A DNA stretch of 64,000 nt from a virus (IMGVR_UViG_2667527664_000002:1-64000), one strand, 5' to 3'; shown: positions 33,245-64,000, counted from the stretch's first letter. Numbers and translations: made by a program. The notes: generated by a model not told the origin, from the sequence alone.

Positions 33245-33703
33245 GTGTTAAATTTGAGTAGTATTAAAAATACAGTAAATAATTTAGTAACTAAGTTTAA
33301 AACAAGAAATCCATTTGAGTTATGTGACTACTTAAACATCCCTATTCTTCATGAGCCTTTAGGCAATATTAAAGGCTTCTTTCAAAATACACTTAATACT
33401 CCTATAATTCATTTAAATTCTAATTTAGATGAACATGAGATTAAGTGTGTTATTTCTCATGAGCTTGGTCATGCAATTTTACATAAAGATCTTAATGTTT
33501 GCTTTTTAAAGCACTATACATTTTCAGTTACAGATAGATATGAAAATGAGGCAAATAAATTCACAGCGGAGTTATTGATAGATGATAATATGCTTATCGA
33601 TTTTATGGAGGTAAATAATATAATTACAATTGATGAATTAAGTAAATACTTTTGTGTTCCTAAGGAATTTATCATATATAAATTTAAAACATTTTCTATA
33701 TAA
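33245..33703 (+). CDS. ImmA/IrrE-family metallopeptidase (anti-repressor)
   Basis: HELGH...ENEANKFTAELL; follows the repressor. Confidence 0.9.
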   Translation: MLNLSSIKNTVNNLVTKFKTRNPFELCDYLNIPILHEPLGNIKGFFQNTLNTPIIHLNSNLDEHEIKCVISHELGHAILHKDLNVCFLKHYTFSVTDRYENEANKFTAELLIDDNMLIDFMEVNNIITIDELSKYFCVPKEFIIYKFKTFSI

Positions 33704-33750
33704 AATAAAGAAGTATTAATTTTTTTAATTAATACTTCTTTATTTTATAT
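33699..33750. terminator. Bidirectional terminator between convergent genes
   Basis: ataaaataaagaagtattaatt...aattaatacttctttattttat. Confidence 0.75.
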
Positions 33751-33772: not shown

Positions 33773-34825
33773 TTATCTAACATATCCTAAGTTAGTATTT
33801 GTCTCTCTAATTACATGTTCTAATTGTTGATTACTAATTTGTAAAAATCCTGGATATGCATCTCTATCTAATCCAATCTTATTTATTAAATCATGTCTAG
33901 TCATTCTTTTAGTTAGAGCTATATTATATGTCATTTTTATAGTAAAAAATTCATATCTACTATCATATAAGTTTTTTAACTCTGAATCCGTAAATATACT
34001 ATAATTTTTACAATATCTTTTATAATCTTCAAATGATGCAAAACTCCTGTTAGCTCTCACCTCATCAACTACACAAACACTAGTAGCTACAGATCTATAC
34101 TCTGCTTGACCTTCAATATCTGTAGATCTGTATATTAAGATATTATCTCCTTTCTTTAAACGATTCACACCTTTCATTCTGCATATATATATTTTTTCAA
34201 TACTATTAGTATGTGATACATCTTCTACTATATCAATTGATTCTGTATTTAATCTAGAATCTGGAAATAATCTAGTGTGATATTTAGGATATATAGATAA
34301 TAAATAAGCATCTGAATTTTTATCTATAATAGGGTAATTTTTTCTACAATCACTATTTTTTTCGCTTAAGTCTTTTAATAAAACCAACTCACATCCATCA
34401 CTAGTCTTCTTTTTACCATATTTCTTAAATCCATATTTCTCATAAAGTTTAATCAACCCTTCATGTTTACTAAATACAGTTACATATATATTTTTTATGT
34501 TATTCTTAATAGCAAAGTCTAAAGCCTTCTTTATGAAACGTTCTCCTAGTCTAGTTCCATGAGCATCAATCTTCATGGTACCTATCTTTACTACTCTATC
34601 ATAATTTATAATAGGTTCAACATCTGTTATAGGTTCTTCCTCTATTTTAAGATATAAAAAACCTTCTATTTTTCCATTTATAGTCTGTATATATGCCTTT
34701 TCATTTTTTTCTGATTTTCCATTAAACCATCCTTCAAATTTTGTATAATCAGTTTTAAGAGAATCGAAGAATGGGTCATTTAAGTTTATATCTTTAAAAC
34801 TCTCATATAAAAATCTATATTTCAT
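33773..34825 (-). CDS. GNAT acetyltransferase fused to a C-terminal PUA-like (ASCH/EVE) domain
   Basis: KIGTMKI..HGTRLGE and LYEKYGF GNAT motifs; LLSIYPKYH...IEKIYI...GDNILIYR C-terminal domain. Confidence 0.8.
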   Translation of the reverse strand: MKYRFLYESFKDINLNDPFFDSLKTDYTKFEGWFNGKSEKNEKAYIQTINGKIEGFLYLKIEEEPITDVEPIINYDRVVKIGTMKIDAHGTRLGERFIKKALDFAIKNNIKNIYVTVFSKHEGLIKLYEKYGFKKYGKKKTSDGCELVLLKDLSEKNSDCRKNYPIIDKNSDAYLLSIYPKYHTRLFPDSRLNTESIDIVEDVSHTNSIEKIYICRMKGVNRLKKGDNILIYRSTDIEGQAEYRSVATSVCVVDEVRANRSFASFEDYKRYCKNYSIFTDSELKNLYDSRYEFFTIKMTYNIALTKRMTRHDLINKIGLDRDAYPGFLQISNQQLEHVIRETNTNLGYVR

Positions 34826-35348
34826 TTATTATCCCCTCTATTTCTGTATTTTTTTTATCTGAAGTAATATTTATAAATTTTATAGGAATCTTTAGTTCCA
34901 TTGCCACTTTTTTAGCATACTCTGTTTCTTCTTTTTGAAAAGACTCTATAAGTTCAATATTATATTCTATATCGTCTCTTTCCTTTAACCTATCAAAAAT
35001 ATTAGTTTCTTTATCAACAAGCACTATTATGTAATCTATTCCTATACCTTTATAGGTTTCTATAGGTATCCTTGATATTTGCTCATTATTATTTAATAAA
35101 CAAAAATGACCATCAAGCATATAAACTTTCTTTTCAATAAACGTTTTCTTTATAGATTCTATAAGTAATTCTTGATTTGAACTTATATTAGTGGTCCTCT
35201 TGTTCGTAAATATTTCACCTTTTAATTTAGATATCAGCTCACTAGATGAATAGAATGGAATATTATTTTTTGAAGATATTTCTCTTGCAAATGTAGACTT
35301 GCCTACACCATGAATTCCACCTATAAAAATGATTTTTCTTTCTTCCAC
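34815..35348 (-). CDS. P-loop nucleoside/nucleotide kinase (AAA_17/18-like)
   Basis: GGIHGVGKST Walker A, LDGHF, RLKERD lid; overlaps the GNAT start by 11 nt. Confidence 0.82.
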   Translation of the reverse strand: MEERKIIFIGGIHGVGKSTFAREISSKNNIPFYSSSELISKLKGEIFTNKRTTNISSNQELLIESIKKTFIEKKVYMLDGHFCLLNNNEQISRIPIETYKGIGIDYIIVLVDKETNIFDRLKERDDIEYNIELIESFQKEETEYAKKVAMELKIPIKFINITSDKKNTEIEGIINEI

Positions 35349-35489
35349 AAATTTCGCCCCCTTTCTCGCATTAATTATAACATCGATAATATATTTTATT
35401 CAATATGTTATAATTTTTTATTATAAATTCTAAAAGTTGAGTTATAATATATATTTAACTTGTATTTAATTATATAGGAGGATTTTTTT

Positions 35490-35837
35490 ATGAAACATAT
35501 TATGCATTTAAAAAATGATTATTTTAATTTGATAGATAAAAACCTTAAATCTATAGAGTTGAGAATTTATGATCAAAAAAGAAGATTAATATCCGTAGGA
35601 GATAATATAGAATTTGTAAACTCACTTGATGCAAAAACTTCTATATTAGTTGAAGTTACAAATATAGAAATTTTTAGATCATTTAAAGATCTTATTGAAC
35701 ATACAGATAAAAAACTTCTCGGATGGGCCCATCTATCCGAAGATACTATATTGGATAAATTGAGAGAGATATATTCTATCGATGATGAAAATAAATTTGG
35801 AGTGGTTAAAATAACATTTAAAAAAATAGAAAGATAA
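35490..35837 (+). CDS. ASCH domain protein
   Basis: MHL...YFNLI...KSIELR...VGDNIEF; AGGAGG RBS. Confidence 0.8.
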   Translation: MKHIMHLKNDYFNLIDKNLKSIELRIYDQKRRLISVGDNIEFVNSLDAKTSILVEVTNIEIFRSFKDLIEHTDKKLLGWAHLSEDTILDKLREIYSIDDENKFGVVKITFKKIER

Positions 35838-35850
35838 CTATAATATCTTT

Positions 35851-36261
35851 CTATTTTTTTAAACCATTTATTTTATTTACTTTCTCAAAATCTCTTAGAT
35901 AGCAAAACGATTGTGGAGCTTTAAAATTTTCAATAATAATACTAGGTTCAACTGGTTTATCATAAACAATTAAATCTTTTATTTCTAAAGCATATGCCTT
36001 GTCATGATTAGAAAAATACTTGTTAAAATATTTTTGTGATATTCCCGATTCTCTATATGTTTTTTCCCAGACATTTTCTAAATCTCCATGCACAACATCT
36101 TTAACTTTAAACTCACCTATAAACATACCTACAGGTTTTGTTGCGTATATAATAACCGATTCAATATTTTGTTTAAATATTTTCTTTCTATACTCATATT
36201 TTTTTTCACCCGAAACAATTTTTTCAACAAACTCAGGTTTTATAGATAATATAGCTTTCAT
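35851..36261 (-). CDS. ASCH/PUA domain protein (COG4933-like)
   Basis: LSIKPEF...GEKKYEYRK...IYATKP...APQSFCYL. Confidence 0.85.
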   Translation of the reverse strand: MKAILSIKPEFVEKIVSGEKKYEYRKKIFKQNIESVIIYATKPVGMFIGEFKVKDVVHGDLENVWEKTYRESGISQKYFNKYFSNHDKAYALEIKDLIVYDKPVEPSIIIENFKAPQSFCYLRDFEKVNKINGLKK

Positions 36262-36383
36262 TAATGCACCTCTATCACTGAATTTTAATTTATTTATCTT
36301 ACTTAAATAGTATAGAACATATTTTCGGTTTTTTCAATATATGCTATATTTTAAATTAGAAGTTAATATATTTTTATTGAGAG

Positions 36384-37985
36384 GTGATAATATTGATTGC
36401 TGCAATATATTCAAGAAAATCAAAATTTACTGGAAAAGGTGAATCTATAGAAAATCAAATACAACTTTGCATGGACTATGCTAAGAACCTAGGAATAAAT
36501 GAATTTTTAGTATACGAAGATGAAGGTTTTTCTGGTAAATCTATGGATAGACCAAAGTTTAAAGAAATGCTTAAAGATGCTAAAGATAAAAAGTTTGATT
36601 ATTTAATATGTTATAGGCTAGATAGAATATCCCGTAATGTTTCTGACTTCTCTACTCTTATAGAAGATCTAAATAAGCTTAATATATCTTTCGTATCAAT
36701 TAAAGAACAATTTGATACTAGTACTCCTATGGGACGTGCTATGATGTATATATCATCTGTATTCGCTCAGTTAGAACGAGAAACTATAGCTGAACGTGTT
36801 AGAGATAATATGTATGAGTTAGCTAGAACTGGAAGATGGCTAGGAGGTATGCCTCCATATGGTTTTATTAGTACTCAAATTAACTACTATGATGAAAATA
36901 TGAACCAAAGAAAAATGTATAAACTTAAAGTTGATGAGGATACAATAGAAATTGTTAAATTGATATTTGATAAATATTTAGAGCTTAGATCACTTTCAAA
37001 GCTTTATAAATATATGTATGAGAATGGGATTAAAGGAAGTCGTGGAGGTAACCTTGATCCTAGTGCCTTATCTTTAATCCTAAAAAATCCAGCATATGTT
37101 AAAGCTGATAAAAGTGTAGTTGATTATCTAAGAAAGTTTAATATAGATGTTATGGGAGATATAGACAATATACATGGTATCCTAACTTATGCTAAAAATA
37201 CAGATAGTCCTATAGCTGCTGTTGCTAAACATAAAGGTGTTATAGACTCGAATAAATGGATTGAAGCACAAAGGCTACTTAATGCAAATAAGGCTAAAGC
37301 TCCTAGAGCTGGAACTGGAAGTAAGGCATTATTATCAGGTCTTTTAAAATGTTCTAAGTGTGGCTCTAATATGAGAATTACTTATAAAAACTCTAAAAGC
37401 GGCACTATTTATTATTACATATGTGGAACAAAGAAATCTTTAGGAGTATCAGCTTGCGATTGTAGAAATATCAGATCTGATAAGGCTGAATCTAAAGTTA
37501 TAGATGAATTAAAAAATAAAAGTATTAAATCTATAATGTCAAGTTATAAAGATAGCAAGTTAGAAAACTCTAAGAATAGTAAAAATATAAAAACTGAGAT
37601 AAACTCAATAAATAATCAAATTAAAGAAAAGGAAACATACATTGATAATTTAGTTATGCAATTAGCCAAGGTTACCGAAAGCTCTGCATCTACTTTTATA
37701 ATCAATAAATTAGAATCTTTAAATAATGACTTATCTAATTTAAAATCACAATTAGAATCTTTAAATACTATGTCTATGGAAAATAAGCAAGTTGATATTA
37801 ATATAAATATGCTTATAGATAATTTAAATAAATTCAATAAAGAAATTGATACCTCTGACATCAATAAGAAGAGACTGTTACTATCTACAGTAGTAGATTA
37901 CATGACATGGGACTCTGATACAGACACAATAAAAGTAAACCTAATAGGTATCAATCCAAGCAATACTATAACTTCAGATAAATAG
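36384..37985 (+). CDS. Large serine recombinase (prophage 1 integrase)
   Basis: YSRKS catalytic Ser, DEGFSG...RP, YRLDRISR, recombinase domain, CSKCG Zn ribbon, coiled coil. Confidence 0.95.
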   Translation: MIILIAAIYSRKSKFTGKGESIENQIQLCMDYAKNLGINEFLVYEDEGFSGKSMDRPKFKEMLKDAKDKKFDYLICYRLDRISRNVSDFSTLIEDLNKLNISFVSIKEQFDTSTPMGRAMMYISSVFAQLERETIAERVRDNMYELARTGRWLGGMPPYGFISTQINYYDENMNQRKMYKLKVDEDTIEIVKLIFDKYLELRSLSKLYKYMYENGIKGSRGGNLDPSALSLILKNPAYVKADKSVVDYLRKFNIDVMGDIDNIHGILTYAKNTDSPIAAVAKHKGVIDSNKWIEAQRLLNANKAKAPRAGTGSKALLSGLLKCSKCGSNMRITYKNSKSGTIYYYICGTKKSLGVSACDCRNIRSDKAESKVIDELKNKSIKSIMSSYKDSKLENSKNSKNIKTEINSINNQIKEKETYIDNLVMQLAKVTESSASTFIINKLESLNNDLSNLKSQLESLNTMSMENKQVDININMLIDNLNKFNKEIDTSDINKKRLLLSTVVDYMTWDSDTDTIKVNLIGINPSNTITSDK

Positions 37986-37999
37986 GAACTTTAATACAT

Positions 38000-38191
38000 T
38001 TATCTGAAGCTATTTCTATGTCAGATAAGGTCGCAGTTTTATCCAAACGTCCTGCATCTATAAAAAGTATCTATAATATAGATTTAAAAATATCAGAAAC
38101 TAGAACTCCTATAATATCAAGAAGTGCTGAAAATTTTAAAGACTATTTTAATATCTTGTGGAAGGAGATTGATTCTAGTGAAACAAAATAA
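38000..38191 (+). pseudogene. Orphan 3' end of an ABC transporter ATP-binding gene (YtlC/TauB-like), split by prophage 1
   Basis: Manual translation LSEAISMSDKVAVLSKRPASIK...FKDYFNILWKEIDSSETK*, the segment that normally follows the H-loop (VTHD); no start codon or N-terminus; overlaps the permease start. Confidence 0.82.
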
Positions 38192-38981
38192 TGTATCACA
38201 AGGTCATAAACAATATTTAAAATTGCTAAAAAAAGAAAAGAATCTAATCTTTTTTTATCAAATATTTATATTGGTTGGATTTATAGCTCTTTGGGAATTA
38301 CTTGCTAGACTTAATATAATAGATGTATTTCTATTTAGCAAACCTAGTGATATTTACAATCTTTTTATAAAATATATTCAAAATGGAGAATTATTTAAGC
38401 ATATATTAATATCTAGCTATGAGACAATAGTTGGATTAGCAGTTGGTACAATTCTTGGAATATTAGTAGCTATAATGCTTTGGTGGTCAGAAAGATTGTC
38501 TAAAATACTTGATCCATTTTTGGTTGTACTAAATGCACTTCCTAAAACAGCATTAGCACCAATTTTAATAGTTTGGGCTGGAGCTGGTGTAAATGGAATA
38601 ATAGTTATAGCTATTACTATATCTGTTGTTGTTACTATATTATCCGCCTATAATTATTTTATAAGTGTTGATGAGGAAAAAGTCAAAATGCTTAAAAGTT
38701 TTGGAGCATCAAAACTTCAAATTCTTACAAAATTAATATTTCCTTCTAACATAGGAAATTTAATAAATTTAACTAAAATTAATATAGGTATGGCTTGGGT
38801 TGGCGTAATAGTAGGTGAATTCTTAGTATCTAGATATGGTCTTGGGTACTTAATAGTTTATGGTGGCCAAGTTTTCAAATTAGATTTAGTAATGATGGGA
38901 GTAATAGTATTAGCCCTTTGTGCTTTAATTATGTATCAAGTTTTAAATATAGCAGAAAAAATTTATAAAAGTAAAAGATAA
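38178..38981 (+). CDS. NitT/TauT-family ABC transporter permease (YtlD-like)
   Basis: LNALPKTALAPIL, EAA-like loop KSFGASK, GVIVGEFL; AAGGAG RBS before GTG 38178. Confidence 0.9.
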   Translation: MKQNNVSQGHKQYLKLLKKEKNLIFFYQIFILVGFIALWELLARLNIIDVFLFSKPSDIYNLFIKYIQNGELFKHILISSYETIVGLAVGTILGILVAIMLWWSERLSKILDPFLVVLNALPKTALAPILIVWAGAGVNGIIVIAITISVVVTILSAYNYFISVDEEKVKMLKSFGASKLQILTKLIFPSNIGNLINLTKINIGMAWVGVIVGEFLVSRYGLGYLIVYGGQVFKLDLVMMGVIVLALCALIMYQVLNIAEKIYKSKR

Positions 38982-44254: not shown

Positions 44255-45133
44255 TTATTTTTTTATAACTTGTACTTGTATTCCTTCCATAGGTTTACCA
44301 TATATACCTGCATAATCATTTAAATCTATAACCCAAGGAAGCCATCTACTTCCAACGTATGCTCTATATTGAATACTATAGTTATCTAATCCAATTAATT
44401 GCATTTCTAAAGCATCTATATTTTTACTTAATATACCAGCATAATCCTGTCTATCAGTAACCCAAGGAAGCCATTTACCATCTATTGTATGAACTCTGTA
44501 TCTTATAGAACCTTTACTTAAATTAGCATACACCCCTTGCATGGGTTTACCATATATACCAGCATAATCTTCTAAATTAACTACATTAGGAAGCCATTTA
44601 CCTTTTGCATAGACTTGATAAGTTACATCAATATCTGTATTTATAGTGACACTTTCAGAGCTTCCAACTAATCTATTTTTAAAATTCCACCATCTAGCCC
44701 AATTATTATCATGAAAAGCAGATGGACAATCTTTTCTAGATGCATCATAGTGTCTTACAACATGATCTGAATCTATACCATATTTATTCATAAGATGTTT
44801 TGTTAACACTAAAGTATTTTCTACTGTTTTTTCTGAGATTCTTCCGTTATCAGTCCCACACATTTCTATAGCTATAGAATTTCTATTATTTATACCATAT
44901 CTATTATTACCATCTCCACAATGCCAAGCACCGTTATATTCTTCTACCACTTGATATATTTCATTATCATCTACAAAATAATGTGCTGATGCATTTCTAT
45001 TACCTCCATAGAAATAATCAGCATTATTCTTTGCAGTGTCGTTTATGTTGCCAGTATAATGTATTACAATATACTCTACGTTATTTCCTTCATAGTGATT
45101 ATATGGACTTATTTTTCTTTTTATATTTAACAT
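44255..45133 (-). CDS. Endolysin, Amidase_2 with C-terminal cell-wall-binding repeats
   Basis: IVIHYTG, ASAHYFVD, AWHCGD, RHYDASRKDCP; 3x WLPxV...DYAGI repeats. Confidence 0.92.
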   Translation of the reverse strand: MLNIKRKISPYNHYEGNNVEYIVIHYTGNINDTAKNNADYFYGGNRNASAHYFVDDNEIYQVVEEYNGAWHCGDGNNRYGINNRNSIAIEMCGTDNGRISEKTVENTLVLTKHLMNKYGIDSDHVVRHYDASRKDCPSAFHDNNWARWWNFKNRLVGSSESVTINTDIDVTYQVYAKGKWLPNVVNLEDYAGIYGKPMQGVYANLSKGSIRYRVHTIDGKWLPWVTDRQDYAGILSKNIDALEMQLIGLDNYSIQYRAYVGSRWLPWVIDLNDYAGIYGKPMEGIQVQVIKK

Positions 45134-45872: not shown

Positions 45873-46058
45873 TTATTGTCTATCTTCAGTTATCTTTATC
45901 GGTAAATTACTAGTAGGCTTGTCATAATCTTCGCCAGTTATTTCTTTAAACTGTTCTTTTGATATTCTTTCAGCTTCAACAAATAACCTAACATCATCAA
46001 CCTTATATATTTTTAAATCAAAATATTTCTTTGCCATTTCAAAATACCATTTATCCAT
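45873..46058 (-). CDS. xkdX: XkdX family protein
   Basis: FVEAERISKEQFKEITGEDY. Confidence 0.8.
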   Translation of the reverse strand: MDKWYFEMAKKYFDLKIYKVDDVRLFVEAERISKEQFKEITGEDYDKPTSNLPIKITEDRQ

Positions 46059-46554
46059 TTAAATTACCTCCTAATGATTTTAATATTAGATTAGCAACAT
46101 CTTTTTCTATGCCTTTAACTTGTATATCTTTATTAACTAAATTTAAAGTTGTTTGAGCCATATTAGTATTTAAATTATTTATTTCAATATCTTTGTTAAT
46201 TGATTTTAAAGTTGCTTGTGCTAAGTTTATATTTAATTCTTTAATTTGAATATCTTTTTCTAGACTTTCTTTTATTAAAAATGCATTTTGTTTTTCTAAT
46301 AAATCAGTTCTAGTTTGTTTTGGCTTCTTATATTCAAAAGGAATTATTTCAAATATATCTTTATCTTCAATTGTATAAAGTTCTTTTAGTTCGAAGTTTT
46401 CTTTTAATTTAAAATCATTTGTTAAAGACCTTAGATATTCCCATAATTGTTGATTAATCATTATATTAGGGCTATGAACAATTTCATTATATTCATCTAA
46501 ATAGAATCCATTAAAAGTAAAACTATCTTCTTTATAATGTAAATAAATTTTCAC
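46051..46554 (-). CDS. Tail-fibre-associated coiled-coil protein
   Basis: Repeated KDIxI...AQxTL units; GGAGG before GTG 46554; between fibre and XkdX. Confidence 0.6.
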   Translation of the reverse strand: MKIYLHYKEDSFTFNGFYLDEYNEIVHSPNIMINQQLWEYLRSLTNDFKLKENFELKELYTIEDKDIFEIIPFEYKKPKQTRTDLLEKQNAFLIKESLEKDIQIKELNINLAQATLKSINKDIEINNLNTNMAQTTLNLVNKDIQVKGIEKDVANLILKSLGGNLNG

Positions 46555-46565
46555 TTTAGAACCTC

Positions 46566-49241
46566 CTATCTTCCAATTGCAATCCATTGAATTCTTACAT
46601 CTTTACCATTTTCATTTTTACTCTCAAAGTCTAAAGCTTCTGCATATGCACGTGTTAAGTTATCACCTACTACACTTCCTGTTGCTTCACAATATCCTCC
46701 GTAATTATTTGATGCTACATTACCTGTACAGTGTGCATATTCAGAAAATGCTATAGGATAGTATAAATACCCCTTAGCCCTATAACCGTCAAATCTTATT
46801 AATGTGCTTCCCCATTGTATTATTGTTCCATTAGGGAATTTTTGATAACCATTAGACTGACCATTCTTACCTTCAAAATCTGCATTAGTTGGTGTTTTTT
46901 TCCAATCCCACCAATTACCTGAATAGTTTTTCAATCTAGTATAAACTTCCCCATTAACATTAGTAAATCTTTGCATTAGTTCAGTATCATTAGTATGAAA
47001 TACTTCTAATGCTCCATATATATTTCCACTGTACGGAGCATTTGGAATAGAACTTCCTTCTTTAAAAACATAATATCGACCTTCTTCTAAAGATGTATTA
47101 AAATCTGTAACACTTCCTACATTTTTTAAATCATATCTTTCATCGTGATTATGAGATATAAAATCAAACATAAGCTTTAATAAAGTATCATCAACATTTT
47201 CAATTTTTTCAGTTATTGAGTTATCTGAAGATACAAAAGAAGAAGGAATATAATATTCTACTCCTGGATCTATTGCACCACTATTTATTGACAGTAAAGT
47301 TTGAGGATTAAAAGATATAGTCGATATATCTAAGCATTCATAAATTTCCTCTTGTTGTAATTGATAAACAACTGTAATCGGATTATTATGGAGCCAATTT
47401 TTCAATGTAGATATATCTGAACACTTATCTTTTTTTAATCTTATATAAATTCTAGAATTAGTTATTGAACCACTAATACTTTCTTTATTGTTAGAATCTC
47501 CCCAGGCATCTCCAATATAACTTAAATTATTTGCTAAAAGATTTGTTAATCCAATTTTTTTGCCAGGAACATCTATATTAGCTCTTATATATCCAACAGG
47601 TCTATCAACTTCAATAGACCAATTCTCATCACTTGAGCCATCAAAGGTTATTACTGATATTAATTTATGTAATAAATATTTATTACAATACTTTTCTACT
47701 ACTGAATCTTTTACACTTCCTAAACTTCTTAAAATAGGTTTTTTCCATATCTTAGATTTAGAATCATAATATAAAAGGTTTCTTTTACTTTCTTCGTGAC
47801 GTAGATAGCTAGGAGTTTTTTTATTAATACTAAGTTCTATATTTCTAACCTTGATATGATTATTATCAACCTTTACGAATTCGCATCCTTTGAAAAAGGT
47901 AGTATTTAAATAACCTATTTGTTCAACAGGAATTAAAACCTTATCGTCTTTAACATCTCCATTTATTCCTATCAAAAATTTCCAATTGCTTAAATCAAAT
48001 TTAGATAAGTCTAAAACCATATTCGGAGTCATATCTGTTATTTGCTGATAGTTATCGTTAACAAATCCCATATATAAACTACAATTATTATTACCTGTTG
48101 TCCTGAAATGGTAATATCCATCAGCTTCAAGTTTAGAACTTAATAATTTTTCATCAAATAAATTTAAATTACTACTCTTTAATGATATATTGTCTACTCC
48201 ATCTCCAACCGATTTAAGGCCTTCAAAATAATCATTTATTTTCTCATTTCCTTCAACTAGAACAATCTTTACATTTTTTACATCATCCAAAGTAAACTTT
48301 TGATCTCCGTTTGGATATAGATGAAGAAATGAATTTCCTATCTCCGATAGAGATGTAAAAGTACCTTCTGGACTTTTAGTTATTTTTGGAGCTGTTAAAT
48401 GAAACCAATGAGAATTACATTTTTGAGGTAATCCAAATAATTTATAACTATAATTTGTATTAGGATTTATTGGTAAATCACTTAAGTAAATTGAATAATA
48501 AGCATTTACCCCTAAGTTTTCTCCACTTCCTCCTAACACCCATTTAGAAGGATTCAAAGGTATTATATTAAATAATGTTTTACCAGTTAACTTTAAATTT
48601 TGTATATATCCATTTGAACTATCTGTTATAACATTATTTCCAGTTACCTTTTTACCACCGTTAGAAACTATATTATTGGCTTGCTCTAAAACTCTTTCTA
48701 GTTCTTTTACATTAATTTTAGCTTCTGTATTTTGGCCTTCTAATTTATCTTTATTTGCTACTAAATCCTCTAACGGAGCAAGTTCTTTCTTAAATTTATC
48801 TAGTTCTTTTTTAGCTTGGCCAACATATCTATCAAGCTTTTCTAAAGTACATATATCTGTAATAGATTCTATAGCCTTATCAGACCCTACTTTTTCTCTT
48901 ACTTCAAATAAAAATGTAGCTGTTGTTACTTGTCCAGTAGATGATTTTAATTCTAATTCAGCATAAGTTAATCCACTTGCTGTTAATGCTTGATTTTTTA
49001 CATTTATTTTAACTTCATCATCTTGAATAGTTATATTATCTTCTTGATATACTATAGTTCCATCTGATTTCTTTACGAACATTTTAATTTTTTCGCCCTC
49101 AAAATGATAAGGAAGTCCATTTTTATATAAAGATGCATAAAAAATAGCAGTGTCATACTGCTTTAATCTAAATTTAGGTATATGGTCTTCTCTTTCTATA
49201 TCTAACTTAAAATGAAAGTTATTTACTGCCAATACTATCAC
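46566..49241 (-). CDS. BppU-family baseplate upper protein / tail fibre (receptor binding)
   Basis: N-terminal KQYDT...VKKSDGT BppU-like region; C-terminal GYQKFPNGTIIQWG fibre motif. Confidence 0.8.
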   Translation of the reverse strand: MIVLAVNNFHFKLDIEREDHIPKFRLKQYDTAIFYASLYKNGLPYHFEGEKIKMFVKKSDGTIVYQEDNITIQDDEVKINVKNQALTASGLTYAELELKSSTGQVTTATFLFEVREKVGSDKAIESITDICTLEKLDRYVGQAKKELDKFKKELAPLEDLVANKDKLEGQNTEAKINVKELERVLEQANNIVSNGGKKVTGNNVITDSSNGYIQNLKLTGKTLFNIIPLNPSKWVLGGSGENLGVNAYYSIYLSDLPINPNTNYSYKLFGLPQKCNSHWFHLTAPKITKSPEGTFTSLSEIGNSFLHLYPNGDQKFTLDDVKNVKIVLVEGNEKINDYFEGLKSVGDGVDNISLKSSNLNLFDEKLLSSKLEADGYYHFRTTGNNNCSLYMGFVNDNYQQITDMTPNMVLDLSKFDLSNWKFLIGINGDVKDDKVLIPVEQIGYLNTTFFKGCEFVKVDNNHIKVRNIELSINKKTPSYLRHEESKRNLLYYDSKSKIWKKPILRSLGSVKDSVVEKYCNKYLLHKLISVITFDGSSDENWSIEVDRPVGYIRANIDVPGKKIGLTNLLANNLSYIGDAWGDSNNKESISGSITNSRIYIRLKKDKCSDISTLKNWLHNNPITVVYQLQQEEIYECLDISTISFNPQTLLSINSGAIDPGVEYYIPSSFVSSDNSITEKIENVDDTLLKLMFDFISHNHDERYDLKNVGSVTDFNTSLEEGRYYVFKEGSSIPNAPYSGNIYGALEVFHTNDTELMQRFTNVNGEVYTRLKNYSGNWWDWKKTPTNADFEGKNGQSNGYQKFPNGTIIQWGSTLIRFDGYRAKGYLYYPIAFSEYAHCTGNVASNNYGGYCEATGSVVGDNLTRAYAEALDFESKNENGKDVRIQWIAIGR

Positions 49242-51861
49242 CTTCTTTTTCTGTATATAATCTCCAATACTCTTTATTTTCGATAATATTATTATTTAAA
49301 TCATTTTCTTTTAAAGCATCTAGAAATACTTCTTTATTTCTTTCTTCTTCAAATCCTTGTCTTTTAGCTGTTACAACATATTTAAAGGTAAAATCTTTTC
49401 TATCTGATTCAACTATAAAATAATCTTTTGTTTGTTCTTTTATTCTGTAATCTCCCCAGCCTTGCTTTATTATTTCAACTGTATAATCTAAATCAAGATT
49501 AACACTATCTTTAAATATATTATCTAATAGAACTACTCTTTCATATGTAACTTTATTATTATTATGTTTAACTTCATCTACAGTTAATAAATGCATACCT
49601 CTATCTGTTAAATAACTTTCGCAATCCTCTACACTATAGAATAATCTTTCTCCATAATGTTTAGTTTTTTGAACACAGTTTTTATTTCCATTTACAGTAA
49701 AGTCTCCATTAACATGTATTCCATTATCTGCATAAAACTTCAATTTAGAAACTAGATTATTAGTTGTTGAAGTAAATAAGGCATCATTACCATTTTTCCA
49801 AAAACTAAATCCATTTTCTGTAGAAAATGATGCATATATTTGAGAACCATCCCATAATTTACAATGACCACTTTTAAAAGATGCATATTTATAATCACGT
49901 CCAGCAAAATAAGTTTCATAAGGACTTGAATTAAAATATGCGGCATCAGTATTTAAATCATATAGCCAAAAACTTTCATTTCCTAATTTCATTTTCCATT
50001 TAAGATTACTTCCAATAACTCCCCAGTAATTAGTTGCTTTATTTATAAAATTATTACCATCAGTAGATCTATATATTTCATTTAAACCATCTTTATCTAA
50101 AACTAACCCCCATCCATTCATACACATTTTTTCATAAACCATAATAGGATAGGGAGCATTTCCTGTTAAATTATATTTATCGAATTTTATATAAAAAGGA
50201 TATGAATTAGAAGTATTTTTATCTTCGTAAGCTATTCCAGAATAACCATCTGTTGAATTCGATAAAATTATTCCTGGAATTTCAGTACCTGTTATTCTTC
50301 CTGAAAAAATTTCTCCTATATGTTTACCTATTCCATCCCAATCATAAAACTTAAGCATATTGCCTGCTAATTCCACAGCTTTAATTCCATTTTTTAAAAA
50401 CTTAACTCCATTTGTACCAGATAAATCAATTTGTAAGCTTCCATCCCTATTTTGAATCATTATTGTACTAAGTATACCAGTTGCTATTAAACTAGCGTTT
50501 ATAACTCCATTGATTGTAAATCCATAACTATATTTTCCGTAATATCCAGTTTGGCTAAATGCAAGGCCATTTTTATTAAGTTTTACAACATTTTGAGCTA
50601 AATTTAAATCCTTATTATCAGCTACTATAATTTCATTTTGTCTAGGAATCACATAACTGTCTTTAATTCCTGAGTTTATCATACTTTGGATAATATCTTG
50701 TACGTTATTATTTTTAGTATCTTTTATTATAGAGTTTAGCTCTGCTAATATATCCGAAGTAGTTATAGACTTTTGACTTATATCTGTATTTGATAATTCA
50801 ATTTCTATAGTTCTTTGTCTTAAAACATCATATTTCTTTCTAATACATCTAACATTAACATGTACTTTATGTTTTTCTTCATAAACATTGACTGTATCAC
50901 CTAAATAGACTCTTTCAGCTTGAACATAGTTTTTATATTCCTCTGTATATTCAAGTTGTACAAAATTAATTTTATACGATGCCCTTAATTCATCTATATG
51001 CTTTTGTGTAAACTCTAACTTTGCTAGTCTCTTAAGTTCTTCTTGTGCTTCTTTAAGTGTTTTAAATCCTTCATCAGGATTTTTTTCGTCTCTTACTTTC
51101 ACAGATTCATATTTAATTTCTTTTGTCTTAACAGCACTATATTTCTTTATAAGAGGACTATCTATATATCCATCTATAGTTATACCATCAAATCCAGTTG
51201 GCTTAATTCTAGTACATACATTATCTATATCTGTTTTAGCTTCAAATCCAGTTAGATTTTTTCTAGAACGTATTTGAACACCTCTATCTGCTCCTATTCT
51301 TTTATTTAAAGAAACAGTATAACCTCTTCTTAACGTTTCTCCACCCCATCTATTTATAAAAGATTGATCACAATCATATATAGCTTGATATACATTCATT
51401 TTCATATAATAAGCTGTATTAATCTTTTCTATATCTGAAAAGAGTTGTATATCTTTCTTACCTATTGATTTTTGTCTTAATATTGATAATGCACCTTGCC
51501 CACTAGTATCTGTTGGTCTAGTATCCTCAATCCACATATCAAGCATTTCAGATATTGTAATTTGTCTAGCAAATACTTTTACGTCTCTACTACTTCTATT
51601 TACTTTAGCTATTCTAAAATATTCATTTCCATAGTCTAACTGTACCTTAATAATAGCTTCCTCAATTAAAGATTCATGAAGTCCTTCTTTATCTATCAAA
51701 GAAACTAAATCTAAATAATACTCACCAGTTAAAAGATGTTCATCTGTTTTAGCCTCTATTATTATATTATCAAGTATCTTATCCCCATTTGAATAAATAA
51801 CTTCATCTGGATTTGCATTTTGATTAAAGATACATACTTTTACTATTTTTCTATTACTCAT
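49219..51861 (-). CDS. Tail spike/Tal (prophage endopeptidase-type)
   Basis: SFINRWGGE, GADRGVQIRSRKNL, TRIKPTG; AGGAG before ATG 51861. Confidence 0.82.
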   Translation of the reverse strand: MSNRKIVKVCIFNQNANPDEVIYSNGDKILDNIIIEAKTDEHLLTGEYYLDLVSLIDKEGLHESLIEEAIIKVQLDYGNEYFRIAKVNRSSRDVKVFARQITISEMLDMWIEDTRPTDTSGQGALSILRQKSIGKKDIQLFSDIEKINTAYYMKMNVYQAIYDCDQSFINRWGGETLRRGYTVSLNKRIGADRGVQIRSRKNLTGFEAKTDIDNVCTRIKPTGFDGITIDGYIDSPLIKKYSAVKTKEIKYESVKVRDEKNPDEGFKTLKEAQEELKRLAKLEFTQKHIDELRASYKINFVQLEYTEEYKNYVQAERVYLGDTVNVYEEKHKVHVNVRCIRKKYDVLRQRTIEIELSNTDISQKSITTSDILAELNSIIKDTKNNNVQDIIQSMINSGIKDSYVIPRQNEIIVADNKDLNLAQNVVKLNKNGLAFSQTGYYGKYSYGFTINGVINASLIATGILSTIMIQNRDGSLQIDLSGTNGVKFLKNGIKAVELAGNMLKFYDWDGIGKHIGEIFSGRITGTEIPGIILSNSTDGYSGIAYEDKNTSNSYPFYIKFDKYNLTGNAPYPIMVYEKMCMNGWGLVLDKDGLNEIYRSTDGNNFINKATNYWGVIGSNLKWKMKLGNESFWLYDLNTDAAYFNSSPYETYFAGRDYKYASFKSGHCKLWDGSQIYASFSTENGFSFWKNGNDALFTSTTNNLVSKLKFYADNGIHVNGDFTVNGNKNCVQKTKHYGERLFYSVEDCESYLTDRGMHLLTVDEVKHNNNKVTYERVVLLDNIFKDSVNLDLDYTVEIIKQGWGDYRIKEQTKDYFIVESDRKDFTFKYVVTAKRQGFEEERNKEVFLDALKENDLNNNIIENKEYWRLYTEKEGDSIGSK

Positions 51862-51874
51862 AATATATATACTC

Positions 51875-52603
51875 CTATTTAAATGCTGTCCTTGGTAGTA
51901 TCTCAATTTTAGATACATTACCTACCCAACTAATTTTATTATTACCTCTTGTTAATACAAGGAAATGTCCTATCATATCTCTATTTTTACTTAATCTATC
52001 TTTATCTGTGCATTCTAAAAGCTTACTATCTAACTCCACATAATCATTAATATTATTGATTATAATAGTATTTGAGTTTATAGTAAGTTGTACATTACCT
52101 TGACCGAATATTTTTATATTGCATTCTCCTGGTACTGTTCCTAAGTAGAATATATTAGCTCCTGAATTTAAAACTATAGTGGTTTCATTTGCTAAATATC
52201 TAAACGGATCACATATAAATTCTATTTCTATTGAACACATATGCATTGTAGGCTCTGTCTTTTTAGAAAGACTTTTTATTAGATATTTAAAGTTACAGTT
52301 TGTAAAACAAATTAGTTCTTTACCTATAGAATTATCAATCCATTCTTCAACATCAAATATTCTACTATAAAAGCTTTCAAGAGATTCCTTGGATCTACGT
52401 TTTAAATCAAATCCAAAACGTAACTTTCTATCTTGATAAGTACCTTTTCTTTCTGTTAGTGTTCCACTTCTACCTTCTACTGGAGTATGTTCTACATCTT
52501 CATTTATACTTTCTATATCCATTAAATACATATTTAACCCTAAGCTATAGAAAGAGTTTATACCATCTATTTGAATATATGCTTTAATAAGTATCACCCC
52601 CAT
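51875..52603 (-). CDS. Distal tail protein (Dit)
   Basis: VEGRSGTL, FICDPFRY, LTRGNNKISW. Confidence 0.82.
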   Translation of the reverse strand: MGVILIKAYIQIDGINSFYSLGLNMYLMDIESINEDVEHTPVEGRSGTLTERKGTYQDRKLRFGFDLKRRSKESLESFYSRIFDVEEWIDNSIGKELICFTNCNFKYLIKSLSKKTEPTMHMCSIEIEFICDPFRYLANETTIVLNSGANIFYLGTVPGECNIKIFGQGNVQLTINSNTIIINNINDYVELDSKLLECTDKDRLSKNRDMIGHFLVLTRGNNKISWVGNVSKIEILPRTAFK

Positions 52604-52620
52604 AATATAAAAAGGATTCC

Positions 52621-55512
52621 TTAATATGCAAATTTAGGATTCCTTTGTTCATTCCTATCTAAAGAATTTTTTATTAATTCAGCTTTAGAGTAAAGAAGTT
52701 CTTCACTATCTAAATAAATCTTTGGATCAAGAGATTTTAAAGTTTTATTCAAAGATGAAATTACTCCTGAAACATCTGATTGATTATTTTTATCATTATT
52801 TTTTTCTATAATGTCAAAATTACTCTTTGATAAAATGGAACTTCCTAAAGAAATAGATTCATATTGTACTTTAGCTTTCATATCAGAAACAAGTCCATGT
52901 ACTTTACCTTTAAACTTTTCTTGCATCTTAGGGAATTGTTTAGACATACCAACTTCAGTACCCTCTACAGTATATTTACCTATAGGAATCATTTTTCTAG
53001 CTGGAGAATGGATTCCTAAAGCCGATTTTGCACCATCAACTATTCCACCAAAAAAATCATGAATTTTACTTTTAAACCATCCTGCTGCTCCTGTTATTCC
53101 ATTCCATACACCATGTACTATATTTCTACCAATAGAAATCATCTTTCCAGGTATAGATTTAACAGTATCAACAACAGCATGTACTAATCTTAAAGCTGCA
53201 TTTTTTCCAGTATTCCAGAGGTTGCTTCCCCAAGCTGCTACTTTAGATATAGCATTACAAAGCCAAGTCCATATTTTACCTGGTAGCTGACATATATAGT
53301 TTATGCAATCTGAAACAAATTGACTAGCTATAGCTTTAACCCTAGCCCACATTTGAGACCCCCAAGCAGAAACTTTATTTATTGTTATACATAGCCAAGT
53401 CCATATTTTACCTGGTAATTGACATATATAATTTATACAATCTGAAATAAATTGACTAGCTATAGTTGTAGCTTTGTTCCACATCTCAGAACCCCAAGCA
53501 GCAACTTTATTTATTGAATCACACAACCAAGTCCATATTTTACCTGGAAGTTCTGAGAACCATGTTCCTACATTGTTAATCCAAATTGGTACATTAGTCA
53601 TTAAATAATTCCAGACTCCAACTCCCCACATAATAATTTTAGTTACTACAAAACCTAAAGCAAAACCTATTTTATATGGTAACTCATTAAACCAATTAAA
53701 AATATTAGTAATCCATGAAGGAATCGTTACTACAAAAAAATTCCATACATTAGTACCCCATGTTTGTATTGTAAGTAATGCATTAGTTGCAAAGTTAATT
53801 ACAGAAGTTTTCATATTATTAAAACCATTTACAAAAAACATCTTTATATTGTTTACTAAGTTATTTATAAAATTTCTAAAACCATCACAGTGCTTATAAG
53901 CTAACATAAAAGCCCCAGCAAATGGATTAACTATAAATAATAATATTTCTTTCCAATCAGATTTAAAAAAATTAATTATGCTATTAAATGCATTTGGTAT
54001 TGTATCAGTAAAAAATGTACATATTGAATTCCAGGCTGTAATACAAGCATTCTTTACAGCATCCCATAATCCAATCCAAAAGTTTCTAAAGCTTTCAGAT
54101 GTATTCCAAAAATAAATAAAAGCTGCTACTAAAGCTCCTATTGCCATAACTAATAAACCTATAGGGTTCATTGCCATTACAGCATTCCAAGCCTCTTGTG
54201 CTAAAGCAGCTAAAGTAACTTTTCCAGTAAGTAAAGCAACAACTGTTTCTCCTAGAGTCAACATTCCATTAAATGCTCCTTGTGCTATAGTAGCTCCTTC
54301 AGCATTCATTGAAAATAAAGCTATTGCTAATTGAGCTTCTTGAAATGCAGAAACAATACCTTTTACGATCATAAAACCTTTAAATGCTAATACAGCTCCA
54401 CCAATGGTTGTTGCTAAAAATAAAATAGGTCCAATGTTAGATGCTATCCATCCACCAAAATTTAAAAGAGCTGGTATAACGACAGTAGTTAATACATTAG
54501 CTATACTTGTAAAAAAATCTACTAAAGGTTTTAACTGTGGGAACATAGTGCTTATTGCATTTCCTATACCTTCTTTACCAACTAATGTAGTAAACTCTTC
54601 TAGTTTAGGCATTAATCCTTGTAAATTATCTTTCATTTTATCAAATATAGGCTTAGCTAATGCTCCAGCTAACATTGTCAAGTTATCCTCTAATGTTGAC
54701 ATCATACCTGAAAAAGTTTTTGATTGATTCTCCATAGCTCCAGTTGTATGACTTGCAATACTATCTATTGCTTTATTATAAACTTCAGATGTGACTTTAC
54801 CCTCACTGGCTAGTTTTTTAACCTGTGAAACAGGAACTCCCATAACTTCACCTAATGCCTTAAATATTGGAATACCTCTATCTTGAAGTATATTTAAATC
54901 TTCAGTATATGCAACTTGTGCTTGTTGAACTTGAGAATACTGTCTAACCATTTCTTTTAAACTATCTTCCTGTATACCAAAAGCTGAACCCATATTGCCA
55001 AACTTAGTTAATTGATCAAACAGTGCTTTCCCATGAAATCCAGCATTGGTTAATTGTTTGGCCATTGCATCGACTCCCATTTTACTAAAAGGAGTTTCAG
55101 CTGCATATTTTTCAATATCTTTCATCATCTGAGATGCTTTTGATTGACTTCCTAAAATAGTAGCCCATGCAACTTGTGCTTGTTCTGACATAGCATTATA
55201 ACTAATTCCAGTTTTAACAACTTCAGTAGCATAATCTTTAACTTTATCTAATATAAATAAGCCACCTAGAGCAGTTGCACATTTTTTTGCAATAGATGAT
55301 ATAGAATTTATATTTCCTCTTACTTCATTTGTTCCTCGTCTACTACTACCTTCTATTTCACTCCAAGCTCTTTTCCAAGCTTGAGAAGAACTCATTCCAG
55401 CTCTTTTATATTCATTAGCTAATCTATTAGCTTCTTGATATAGTTCTCTAGTTCCTCTTCTTGCTCCAGAACTATCTATCCTGGTATCAATTACAATAGT
55501 TCCATCTGACAT
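52621..55512 (-). CDS. Tape measure protein
   Basis: AAETPF tape-measure domain; Trp-periodic repeats; LGIHSPAR. Confidence 0.92.
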   Translation of the reverse strand: MSDGTIVIDTRIDSSGARRGTRELYQEANRLANEYKRAGMSSSQAWKRAWSEIEGSSRRGTNEVRGNINSISSIAKKCATALGGLFILDKVKDYATEVVKTGISYNAMSEQAQVAWATILGSQSKASQMMKDIEKYAAETPFSKMGVDAMAKQLTNAGFHGKALFDQLTKFGNMGSAFGIQEDSLKEMVRQYSQVQQAQVAYTEDLNILQDRGIPIFKALGEVMGVPVSQVKKLASEGKVTSEVYNKAIDSIASHTTGAMENQSKTFSGMMSTLEDNLTMLAGALAKPIFDKMKDNLQGLMPKLEEFTTLVGKEGIGNAISTMFPQLKPLVDFFTSIANVLTTVVIPALLNFGGWIASNIGPILFLATTIGGAVLAFKGFMIVKGIVSAFQEAQLAIALFSMNAEGATIAQGAFNGMLTLGETVVALLTGKVTLAALAQEAWNAVMAMNPIGLLVMAIGALVAAFIYFWNTSESFRNFWIGLWDAVKNACITAWNSICTFFTDTIPNAFNSIINFFKSDWKEILLFIVNPFAGAFMLAYKHCDGFRNFINNLVNNIKMFFVNGFNNMKTSVINFATNALLTIQTWGTNVWNFFVVTIPSWITNIFNWFNELPYKIGFALGFVVTKIIMWGVGVWNYLMTNVPIWINNVGTWFSELPGKIWTWLCDSINKVAAWGSEMWNKATTIASQFISDCINYICQLPGKIWTWLCITINKVSAWGSQMWARVKAIASQFVSDCINYICQLPGKIWTWLCNAISKVAAWGSNLWNTGKNAALRLVHAVVDTVKSIPGKMISIGRNIVHGVWNGITGAAGWFKSKIHDFFGGIVDGAKSALGIHSPARKMIPIGKYTVEGTEVGMSKQFPKMQEKFKGKVHGLVSDMKAKVQYESISLGSSILSKSNFDIIEKNNDKNNQSDVSGVISSLNKTLKSLDPKIYLDSEELLYSKAELIKNSLDRNEQRNPKFAY
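53230..53560 (-). repeat. 132-bp (44-aa) tandem repeats within the tape measure gene
   Basis: ccaagtccatattttacctgg (LPGKIWTWLC) at 53263, 53395 and 53527. Confidence 0.8.
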
Positions 55513-55563
55513 ATATCACCCTCCTTTCATTTGAATTTAGGTATAAAAAAGTACCTACTATTT

Positions 55564-56184
55564 TTAAGTAAGTACATCAAGATCTAATACTCCATCCCCC
55601 ATTAATATTTTAGCAATTTCATCTTCTTTTTCTTTTTGCTCTTTATCTATATACTCAGGAAGTTTATATATTTGTTTCATCTTTTTATAAAATGCTTTTT
55701 CTTCTTTATCCTTTATTTTAGATAAATCAGATGCTCTATATTTCATTATTTCACAAATCTTATTATCTTCTTTTAAAGATTCAAACATTGCTTTAAATTT
55801 CCACCAATGTAAATCGTTTATATCTTGTAAATCTATATTATACTGGCTTAAAAAAGCACTATAGATATAACTATCATCATATTCATAAGAGTATACTCTC
55901 TCTACCTTAGAATGGCTATTTTCAGCATTTTCATCTTTATTCTCAGTTTCTTTGCCGCAACTATAAAACCATAATATTTTATGTATAGCGTCTTCAAAGT
56001 ATCTTTCTGGTGGTATTGAAGGATAATACAATTCTAAAGCTTGAATACATTTAAATTCATCAGAAATAGAATCATCATACATCAATAATTCAAATAAAAT
56101 AGATGTACGAAAATCTGAATTAATTTTGTACATCTTCTTTCCTATTTCTACTTTTGTAGGTAGTAAATCAATAAGTATATTCAT
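55564..56184 (-). CDS. Gp15-family (A118-like) tail assembly protein
   Basis: INSDFR, YIYSAFLSQYNIDL, LHWWKF. Confidence 0.85.
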   Translation of the reverse strand: MNILIDLLPTKVEIGKKMYKINSDFRTSILFELLMYDDSISDEFKCIQALELYYPSIPPERYFEDAIHKILWFYSCGKETENKDENAENSHSKVERVYSYEYDDSYIYSAFLSQYNIDLQDINDLHWWKFKAMFESLKEDNKICEIMKYRASDLSKIKDKEEKAFYKKMKQIYKLPEYIDKEQKEKEDEIAKILMGDGVLDLDVLT

Positions 56185-56594
56185 TATTTTTTATTATACT
56201 TTTTATTATAAATTTTCTTATTTTGATGATTTTGATGTCTTTTAGCAACTCTATTTGAAGAATATTTATTTATAGATTGTTGAAATTCTTTTTCTACATT
56301 TTCATCTTCTTTACTTATACCTATGGCTAACTCTTCAAATGCTTTCATAGCTAATTTAAGATTTCTTTTACCCTTAAATATCCTTTCACTTGCACTTTTA
56401 CCTAAAATATTATCCATACATTCCGAAACTATAATTATAGTTTCTCTTATAGCCTCTATCCTAGTTACATTATTGCTTAATTTGTTAAGTTTTTCAGGAA
56501 CTTTTTTCATTTCCTTTTCTATAGTTTCAGATACATCTAAATCCATTGTATCTAATTCAAACTCTTCACCTAAAATCTTTATCATTACATACAC
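56184..56594 (-). CDS. Tail assembly chaperone
   Basis: Position between major tail and Gp15; helical. Confidence 0.65.
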   Translation of the reverse strand: MYVMIKILGEEFELDTMDLDVSETIEKEMKKVPEKLNKLSNNVTRIEAIRETIIIVSECMDNILGKSASERIFKGKRNLKLAMKAFEELAIGISKEDENVEKEFQQSINKYSSNRVAKRHQNHQNKKIYNKKYNKK

Positions 56595-56602
56595 CCCTTT
56601 AA

Positions 56603-57088: not shown

Positions 57089-57093
57089 TTTAT

Positions 57094-58307: not shown

Positions 58308-58309
58308 AT

Positions 58310-58651: not shown

Positions 58652-58655
58652 ACTA

Positions 58656-59744: not shown

Positions 59745-59776
59745 TCCTTCTTTCTTTTATTATTTTTTATTTATAT

Positions 59777-60385: not shown

Positions 60386-60441
60386 CTATAGTCATTCCTT
60401 TCTTAATTAATTTTTTGCATAATAAAAGCACCTACTATTTT

Positions 60442-60801: not shown

Positions 60802-60806
60802 TTAAA

Positions 60807-62660: not shown

Positions 62661-62661
62661 A

Positions 62662-63990: not shown

Positions 63991-64000
63991 TGCAATTTCT

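Follow-up and report, generated by a model that had tools for sequence, protein, structure and literature searches.

Fusions of a GNAT acetyltransferase to an EVE domain have been described computationally. According to the accessible part of Bell, Wolf & Koonin (2020, PMC7641849), such proteins often carry an N-terminal PIN domain and are encoded almost always beside an ASCH gene and often beside an AAA_17 gene. The PIN-less form is described there as common in prophages and as experimentally uncharacterized, a toxin-antitoxin (TA) role is predicted, and the first description, together with the idea of base acetylation, is credited to Iyer et al. (2013), again as far as the accessible text goes. 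Here we analyze a cassette at positions 33,773–36,261 of a viral stretch of 64,000 nucleotides (IMGVR_UViG_2667527664_000002:1-64000; the whole stretch is hereafter the window). This cassette is the GNAT-EVE/ASCH system in a clostridial form with four genes; PADLOC lists the system as candidate PDC-M11. The locus is a new member of an already catalogued, computationally described system and not a new system. What is new is the homology of its ASCH partner to ZmASCH, the nucleoside monophosphate (NMP) kinase fold predicted for its kinase, the standing of a second ASCH protein as a retained and elsewhere fused accessory, and the occurrence of TIR and PIN fusions in the family.

Four genes make up the cassette. 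The GNAT-EVE gene (GNAT-X; 33773..34825, minus strand) encodes 350 amino acids, with residues ~1–155 forming the GNAT domain and ~165–350 an EVE/PUA-like beta-barrel, and its start overlaps the stop of a P-loop kinase-like gene (34815..35348, minus strand, 177 amino acids) by 11 nucleotides (34815–34825). Two ASCH genes complete the set, ASCH-115 of the PH0355/PF0455 type (35490..35837, plus strand, 115 amino acids; Pfam ASCH, E = 4.5e-6) and ASCH-136 of the ZmASCH type, which is GevA-like (35851..36261, minus strand, 136 amino acids). The original prediction, made from the sequence by itself, had seen four non-core genes between immA and the integrase, an 11-nucleotide overlap of kinase and GNAT genes, and a convergent pair of ASCH genes that belong to different subtypes, so that three PUA-fold domains sat within 2.5 kb. 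All four open reading frames (ORFs) and the overlap are confirmed, the two ASCH subtypes are distinct (ZmASCH type at E = 3.7e-17 against PH0355/PF0455 type at E = 1.9e-10 and 3.8e-9), and the count of PUA-fold domains is borne out.

Membership in PDC-M11 follows from the two conserved proteins. The GNAT-EVE protein matches all six PDC-M11A models, the best being PDLC04419 (E = 1.2e-138, residues 7–345 on positions 14–351 of 357), and ASCH-136 matches PDC-M11B (PDLC04425, E = 2.2e-46). With the operon of Bell et al., as given in the accessible text, the window shares a GNAT protein with a C-terminal EVE/PUA-like domain, an ASCH partner, an AAA_17 gene and a prophage setting. It differs in that its ASCH partner lies in a transcription unit of its own and in that it has a separate PH0355-type ASCH gene, which is not met in the accessible part of that article. 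A second relative is named in GenBank, where the homologous pair of Escherichia phage PhiR47_2 (PV340567.1, 2025) is annotated as "GevT toxin" and "GevA antitoxin". The GNAT proteins of the two loci are 45% identical over 98% of the length of the window protein, the ASCH partners match at E = 2e-36, and both pairs occupy a prophage immunity region; unlike the window, the E. coli form is a minimal overlapping two-gene pair, with neither kinase nor second ASCH. Our literature search for GevT/GevA found no paper behind the name, and the PhiR47 paper in that literature concerns another system and does not mention Gev. Nor did we find, in the literature searched, an experimental study of PDC-M11, GNAT-EVE or a GNAT/ASCH pair, and the term "GNAT-EVE" appeared there only in Bell et al. 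(2020) and its preprint; the three papers that name PDC-M11 appear to be surveys. The expectation that this neighborhood had been noted computationally and not characterized agrees with the literature found, though GenBank already names GevT/GevA.

The GNAT-EVE gene and its ZmASCH-type neighbor form an obligate, horizontally mobile pair. Relatives of the GNAT-EVE protein number 2529 in a 90%-clustered collection and 1460 as representatives at 50% clustering, and even between phyla, of which at least 10 are represented (Bacillota, Pseudomonadota, Bacteroidota and others), they remain ~50% identical, with phylum labels scattered on the tree. Among species-representative genomes, 310 pattern matches yielded 272 confirmed relatives, from which the best 80 loci were kept; with the window's own viral record these make 81 loci. 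An ASCH-136 relative is present in 81/81, a kinase relative in 28/81 (27 at E ≤ 1e-5) and an ASCH-115 relative in 5/81, so that the genes do co-occur in other genomes. In 52/81 loci ASCH-136 is the sole conserved neighbor, directly downstream of the GNAT gene. Writing T for GNAT-EVE, A for ASCH-136, K for the kinase and A2 for ASCH-115, with arrows for strand, the arrangements are T> A> (52 loci), K> T> A> (14), K< T> A> (4), T> A> K> (4), T> A2> K< A< (2), and one locus each of T> A> K<, A> K> T>, T> A> A2>, T> A2> A< and the window's own A> A2< K> T>. The window order, in which ASCH, an opposite-strand second ASCH, kinase and GNAT follow one another, thus departs from the operon of Bell et al. 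and is met in 1/81 loci. When ORFs within 4 kb on either side were clustered, no other family reached more than seven loci once antisense shadows of the system's genes were set aside. Chance falls far short of explaining the grouping.

The GNAT-EVE protein's obligate partner, ASCH-136, is homologous to ZmASCH over nearly its full length (E = 3.7e-17 over residues 2–127 with the single sequence; 4.2e-23 with the family profile). ZmASCH (ZMO0922, PDB 5GUQ) is a Mg-dependent ribonuclease specific for single-stranded RNA that prefers the pyrimidine-adenine bond, with contributions from Tyr47, Lys53 and Ser128 (Kim et al. 2017, PMC5615036). Across 37 family members the residues corresponding to Tyr47, Gln127 and Ser128 (Y39, Q117 and S118) do not vary, and neither do K20, E23 and R25, which belong to an invariant K-x-x-E-x-R motif (K20-K-Y-E23-Y-R25 in ASCH-136). 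Unlike these positions, that of Lys53 is Gly/Met in the window protein (PVGM), with a Lys one residue away in most family members, and ribonuclease activity of ASCH-136 is a candidate function based on homology. No Pfam domain besides ASCH was found in the protein, and so none of the ribbon-helix-helix (RHH) or helix-turn-helix (HTH) type that binds DNA in antitoxins of the TacT/AtaT systems. ZMO0921 of Zymomonas mobilis is annotated only as "hypothetical protein", and a look-up of ZMO0923 gave no entry.

In the GNAT-EVE protein, Pfam GNAT spans only residues 17–148 of the 350 amino acids (E = 6e-7). A structure predicted with AlphaFold from 30 relatives (pLDDT 88, pTM 0.86) places the start of a second domain at about residue 165, and Foldseek matches the model to GNATs and this C-terminal domain to ZmASCH chains (TMt 0.70–0.74). 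Pfam EVE is reached by 2/30 family members (best E = 7.7e-4), the window protein not among them. The C-terminus, proposed to be PUA-like in the original prediction, certainly belongs to the PUA-like superfamily, and the label "EVE" rests on the accessible text of Bell et al. (2020). A profile comparison of the C-terminal domain with the ASCH-136 family gave only 9.6% probability. By fold, the GNAT domain is nearest to N-alpha-acetyltransferases (Z = 15.3 to Naa60 over residues 2–155, VIA); the wide VIA search was filled by GNAT-domain matches and is uninformative for the C-terminal half. Since residues 191–206 of the C-terminal domain are poorly modeled yet hold the invariant residues L192, E195, D202 and S204, this loop may be a substrate-induced element. 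The G90/G94 region in motif A of the GNAT domain is invariant too, as is a C-terminal loop at residues 202–211. In PHROGs, phrog_30943 and phrog_13728 are families that match only the C-terminal PUA-like half (193-residue profile, E = 1e-64) or only the GNAT half (144 residues, E = 6e-29); judged by these half-length families, split forms of GNAT-EVE seem to exist in phages.

Fusions indicate which parts act together. Among the 150 best of the 1460 representatives, one carries a C-terminal domain homologous to ASCH-136, in 14 the N-terminal domain is a homologue of ASCH-115 (E = 1e-10 to 9e-5), and none is fused to the kinase. Individual architectures include PIN-GNAT-EVE (P0175); PIN-GNAT-EVE-ASCH, with a PDC-M11B match at 7e-40 and both partners in one polypeptide (P0176); ASCH(115-type)-PIN-GNAT-EVE (P0189); and a ThsB-like TIR domain (7.5e-53) followed by GNAT-EVE (P0125). 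In some lineages, therefore, each ASCH type is part of one polypeptide with the GNAT-EVE core, and this core recruits domains that serve as effectors in known defense systems (TIR, PIN). The PDC-M11A model also matches in the Bacillus subtilis control genome, where a tractable homologue may exist.

The other two genes are accessories. The kinase is predicted to have an NMP-kinase fold: it matches Pfam AAA_17 (E = 2.3e-14), its structural model (pLDDT 92.5) has archaeal-type adenylate kinases as best Foldseek matches (E = 5e-11, TMq 0.76–0.79), and its Walker A (GxHGVGK[ST]), LDGH and RD motifs are invariant in 16 kinase sequences. Its nearest PHROGs family is called thymidylate kinase, and against PADLOC it gives only a weak VakA match (E = 1e-6). 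Kinase presence requires at least 10 changes on the GNAT-EVE tree. ASCH-115 matches the uncharacterized Pyrococcus proteins PH0355/PF0455 in the PDB (E = 1.9e-10 for 2z0t, and 3.8e-9) and the "RNA-binding protein" family phrog_19935 (E = 4e-21), has no PADLOC match, and carries K-S-I-E-L-R at the K-x-x-E-x-R motif. In a quick maximum-likelihood tree of GNAT-EVE proteins six clostridial rows, the window among them, form a clade (SH-like approximate likelihood ratio test, SH-aLRT, 98), and all five loci with a second ASCH lie inside this clade, in four different arrangements, only L002 being without one. Because five of the six clade loci carry the second ASCH, in four arrangements, it is a retained accessory of the clade and not a private insertion. 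The original prediction had taken the plus-strand ASCH for a later insertion; as a one-off event this fails, given its retention in the clade and the fusion of the same type in 14/150 representatives.

Temperate phages put the pair in known defense or exclusion slots. GNAT-EVE relatives are carried by 16 phage records, which by organism name are lambdoid, P2-like or titled prophage save for three (an Enterococcus phage fragment, an uncultured "Bacteriophage sp." and Methanothermobacter phage psiM100). In the lambdoid phage PhiR47_2 the pair directly follows cI, a position that in lambda is that of rexAB. The SopEPhi copy is flanked by gpA and the portal gene (gpQ), and the gpA-gpQ locus is a defense hotspot of P2-like phages (Rousset et al. 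2022); the main text of that paper mentions neither GNAT, ASCH nor acetyltransferase. The E. coli lambdoid allele (L082) is found in 275/5426 complete E. coli genomes, once in each, at ≥99% identity and always in the chromosome. In the 12 annotation rows shown for it, 11 read "hypothetical protein" with "ASCH domain-containing protein" and one reads "N-acetyltransferase" with "hypothetical protein".

The surroundings of the pair in bacterial genomes are consistent with these positions. After 7 near-duplicate loci were dropped, 73 loci supplied their 136 nearest flanking ORFs (≥150 amino acids), which matched 74 PADLOC models at E ≤ 1e-10, a count of models and not of distinct ORFs. The matches include type III and IV restriction enzymes, Avs1a, LmuA, NsnC, TIR-TM, DRT, four MADS mad2 and several PDC candidates, and Pfam adds integrases, transposases and ImmA-like peptidases. 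Defense genes in the flanks count as qualitative support. A separate observation concerns tRNA genes, which lie within 500 nucleotides of the system in 3/80 genome loci. In the Lactobacillus prophage Lj965 (L085:3286-5381) four tRNA genes of the phage (Ser, Glu, Tyr and Phe) have the pair directly downstream; in L055:127-2456 tRNA-Tyr and tRNA-Ser stand 116–209 nucleotides upstream of the kinase, GNAT and ASCH genes; and L060 has a 15-tRNA array 3–5.5 kb away. This adjacency could hint at a tRNA-related function, or it may merely reflect phage and island architecture.

Within the window, the cassette sits between an XRE repressor/ImmA pair (ImmA at 33245..33703; Peptidase_M78, E = 9e-21) and a large serine recombinase/integrase (36384..37985; Resolvase, E = 1e-40), as assigned by Pfam. 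This position marks the prophage's lysogeny end; the prophage extends from an endolysin at ~5.1 kb through tail and terminase genes, and its host, judged by the cluster-member names for two flanking proteins, would be Paraclostridium sordellii. An AT-rich hairpin (33700..33748; dG −21 kcal/mol, z −7.8, 0/200 shuffles as stable) separates the GNAT stop from the immA stop. The convergent ASCH genes are 13 nucleotides apart and have in common a second hairpin with A and T runs (35816..35864; dG −21 on the minus strand and −18.5 on the plus strand, z −9.2 and −8.6). Both hairpins are likely bidirectional terminators. Promoter-like sites with 10/12 consensus matches lie on the minus strand upstream of the kinase-GNAT pair (35374..35403; TTGAAT, 18 nucleotides, TATAAT with TG) and of ASCH-136 (36309..36337; TTGAAA, 17 nucleotides, TATACT). 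These features suggest three transcription units insulated from the adjoining phage genes, with ASCH-136, whose gene is 1.0 kb and two intervening genes away from the GNAT gene, in a unit of its own. Hairpins on either side together with promoter-like sites give a moron-type layout, and we interpret the cassette as a self-contained "moron" at the lysogeny end of the prophage.

Other parts of the window bear on its overall structure. The source record, 79,910 bases long, carries the classification of a provirus. A 57-amino-acid ORF (38018–38191) directly follows the integrase and overlaps part of the start of an ABC-type permease-like ORF (38124–38981); it may represent what is left of a gene at the attachment site. 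That the prophage interrupts an ABC-ATPase gene at this ORF was considered and dropped, the ORF being without a Pfam hit. Beyond it, an N-acetylmuramoyl-L-alanine amidase gene (44255–45133) stands between the first prophage and a second, minus-strand phage-like block (46000–64000) with long ORFs of 891–963 amino acids and many small ORFs.

On balance we think it probable that the cassette is a lysogen-expressed defense moron of a TA-like or abortive-infection kind, acting on RNA and protecting the lysogen from other phages. A TA-like module is the most likely form given the strict pairing, the frequent translational coupling elsewhere, the fusion of the partners, the TIR and PIN fusions and the exclusion-slot positions, and action on RNA is suggested by the relation of ASCH-136 to ZmASCH together with the PUA-like fold. 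That the locus is a candidate defense or TA system had already been proposed from the sequence, and the proposal gains from PDC-M11 membership, from homologues in lysogeny modules next to cI and in the P2 hotspot, and from the defense genes in the flanks. In such a system the GNAT domain would draw on acetyl-CoA to modify a cellular target that is conserved and most likely linked to RNA, such as aminoacyl-tRNA or some other RNA, with the EVE/PUA-like domain choosing it; the resulting acetylation would stop growth upon phage infection. The ASCH partner would restrain GNAT-EVE, either by binding the enzyme or by processing its RNA substrate or product, comparable to the ribonuclease activity of ZmASCH on single-stranded RNA, and the kinase and second ASCH would modulate the system without being essential.

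GNAT-type toxins such as TacT, AtaT, KacT and ItaT use N-alpha-acetyl chemistry on aminoacyl-tRNA. For GNAT-type TA systems Bell et al. (2020) point to Yeo (2018). The pair studied here is analogous to these systems in joining a GNAT enzyme to a small partner of the neutralizing type on mobile DNA, and in having a GNAT fold nearest to that of N-alpha-acetyltransferases. It is unlike them in that the GNAT protein carries a fused PUA-like domain and in that the partner is an ASCH protein and not an RHH/HTH DNA-binding antitoxin.

Several observations weigh against a TA-like defense function. The 9 PDB hits that the family profile gives at E ≤ 10 include none named as a tRNA-acetylating GNAT toxin, although the two may be related, and the closest sequence match of the GNAT domain in that comparison is PaiA, a spermidine acetyltransferase (E = 2.5e-5). 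The presumed antitoxin is transcribed apart from the GNAT gene in the window, which is unusual for type II TA pairs, and promoter-like sites are not enriched there (40 in the region against 33.0 ± 5.6 in shuffles). At one of the 80 genome loci (L038, 7004–7428, a Methylomicrobium metagenome-assembled genome) the ASCH-136 gene is split into two overlapping frames while the GNAT gene is intact, which may be a frameshift, a sequencing or assembly error, or an indication of a dispensable partner. Many flanking genes belong to ordinary housekeeping families in Pfam. Finally, a phenotype, toxicity or substrate was nowhere found in the literature searched, and the toxin and antitoxin names come from one GenBank annotation.

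Of the alternatives, the one that survives best is the scheme of the original prediction, which we now regard as doubtful. There, GNAT-EVE would acetylate a base (for example cytosine N4 in DNA or RNA), ASCH would remove or read the mark, and the kinase would salvage the nucleoside. For acetylation of DNA bases Bell et al. cite Iyer et al. (2013). Three PUA-like domains are present, of a fold that often binds modified bases, and the invariant K-x-x-E-x-R of the ASCH-136 family makes an enzymatic role plausible. The kinase, with its predicted NMP-kinase fold and a thymidylate kinase family as its nearest PHROGs relative, would suit salvage; it is, however, missing from 53/81 loci, so salvage cannot be a core step. 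That an ASCH protein can hydrolyze N4-acetylcytidine is shown by the E. coli amidohydrolase YqfB, in which Thr24 is the essential nucleophile (T24A is inactive) and catalysis uses a K-x-x-T-x-R motif whose Lys serves as the base and whose Arg provides the oxyanion hole (Stanislauskiene et al. 2020, PMC6972931). Both window ASCH proteins belong to the same superfamily and keep the Lys and Arg, but in both a Glu replaces Thr24, as judged by motif position and not by a computed alignment. Moreover, no chain named YqfB occurs among the PDB sequence hits of either ASCH protein (E ≤ 1 for the single sequences, E ≤ 10 for the ASCH-136 profile), and the nearest characterized relative of ASCH-136 is a ribonuclease. 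We find no support for a scheme modeled on YqfB.

A different use of the same parts, a cycle of damage and repair at the tRNA 3′ end, seems to us improbable. Classical PUA domains dock the tRNA acceptor end. By analogy, the EVE/PUA-like domain would dock the acceptor end of a charged tRNA, and the GNAT domain would N-acetylate the aminoacyl group, so that translation is blocked during infection. ASCH-136 would then cut the terminal C-A bond, a step proposed because ZmASCH prefers the pyrimidine-adenine bond, and thereby remove the blocked A76, after which the host CCA-adding enzyme could rebuild the tRNA. Handling of the released nucleotide, or tuning of the cycle, would fall to the NMP-kinase-like protein and the second ASCH. 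The phage tRNA genes directly upstream of the pair in Lj965 and in L055 would fit such a tRNA-centered conflict. If true, this would be a TA-like defense in which the antitoxin is a repair nuclease and not a binder.

The pairing itself, seen in 81/81 loci and accompanied by a toxin/antitoxin annotation, would also be expected of a plain addiction module, one without an anti-phage role that keeps a prophage or island stable through post-segregational killing, and the pair is always on mobile or variable DNA. We give this explanation little weight. The phage exclusion slots, one equivalent to the position of rexAB in lambda and the other the P2 gpA-gpQ hotspot, argue against it, as do the TIR and PIN fusions and the defense-gene neighbors; and many TA systems do both jobs, so it overlaps with the TA-like defense that we favor.

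Carriage by phages (16 records) has an opposite explanation, suggested in the accessible part of Bell et al. (2020, PMC7641849), in which a phage-borne GNAT-EVE could protect the phage from host restriction, perhaps through action on modified nucleic acid or through host toxicity. This is very unlikely in our judgment: the records are mostly lambdoid, P2-like or prophage by name, the three phage regions examined have the pair in cargo or accessory positions, most family members are in bacterial chromosomes beside defense genes, and PADLOC lists PDC-M11 as a host-defense candidate. Least probable is a small-molecule acetyltransferase of host physiology (for example PaiA-like polyamine acetylation) with RNA-binding accessories, for although PaiA is the best sequence and fold match of the GNAT domain, the match is weak (NCBIfam hits are all sub-threshold, PaiA at 27 bits against a curated cut-off of 250) and accounts neither for the fused PUA-like domain nor for the obligate ASCH, the mobile setting or the TIR and PIN fusions.

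The window is a well-behaved member of this family in a rearranged four-gene layout, and the interest lies in mechanism. The pair is widespread (1460 representatives; 275/5426 E. coli genomes) and occupies classic phage exclusion slots, and neither its mechanism nor a phenotype appears in the literature searched. The handles gained are a relative in ZmASCH with a solved structure and characterized biochemistry, an NMP-kinase assignment, predicted from fold, for the kinase, fusions to TIR, PIN and ASCH that point to the parts that act together, and an E. coli allele for genetics. If the system is one of defense, an acetyl-CoA-dependent modification guided by a PUA-like reader would join the known anti-phage chemistries.

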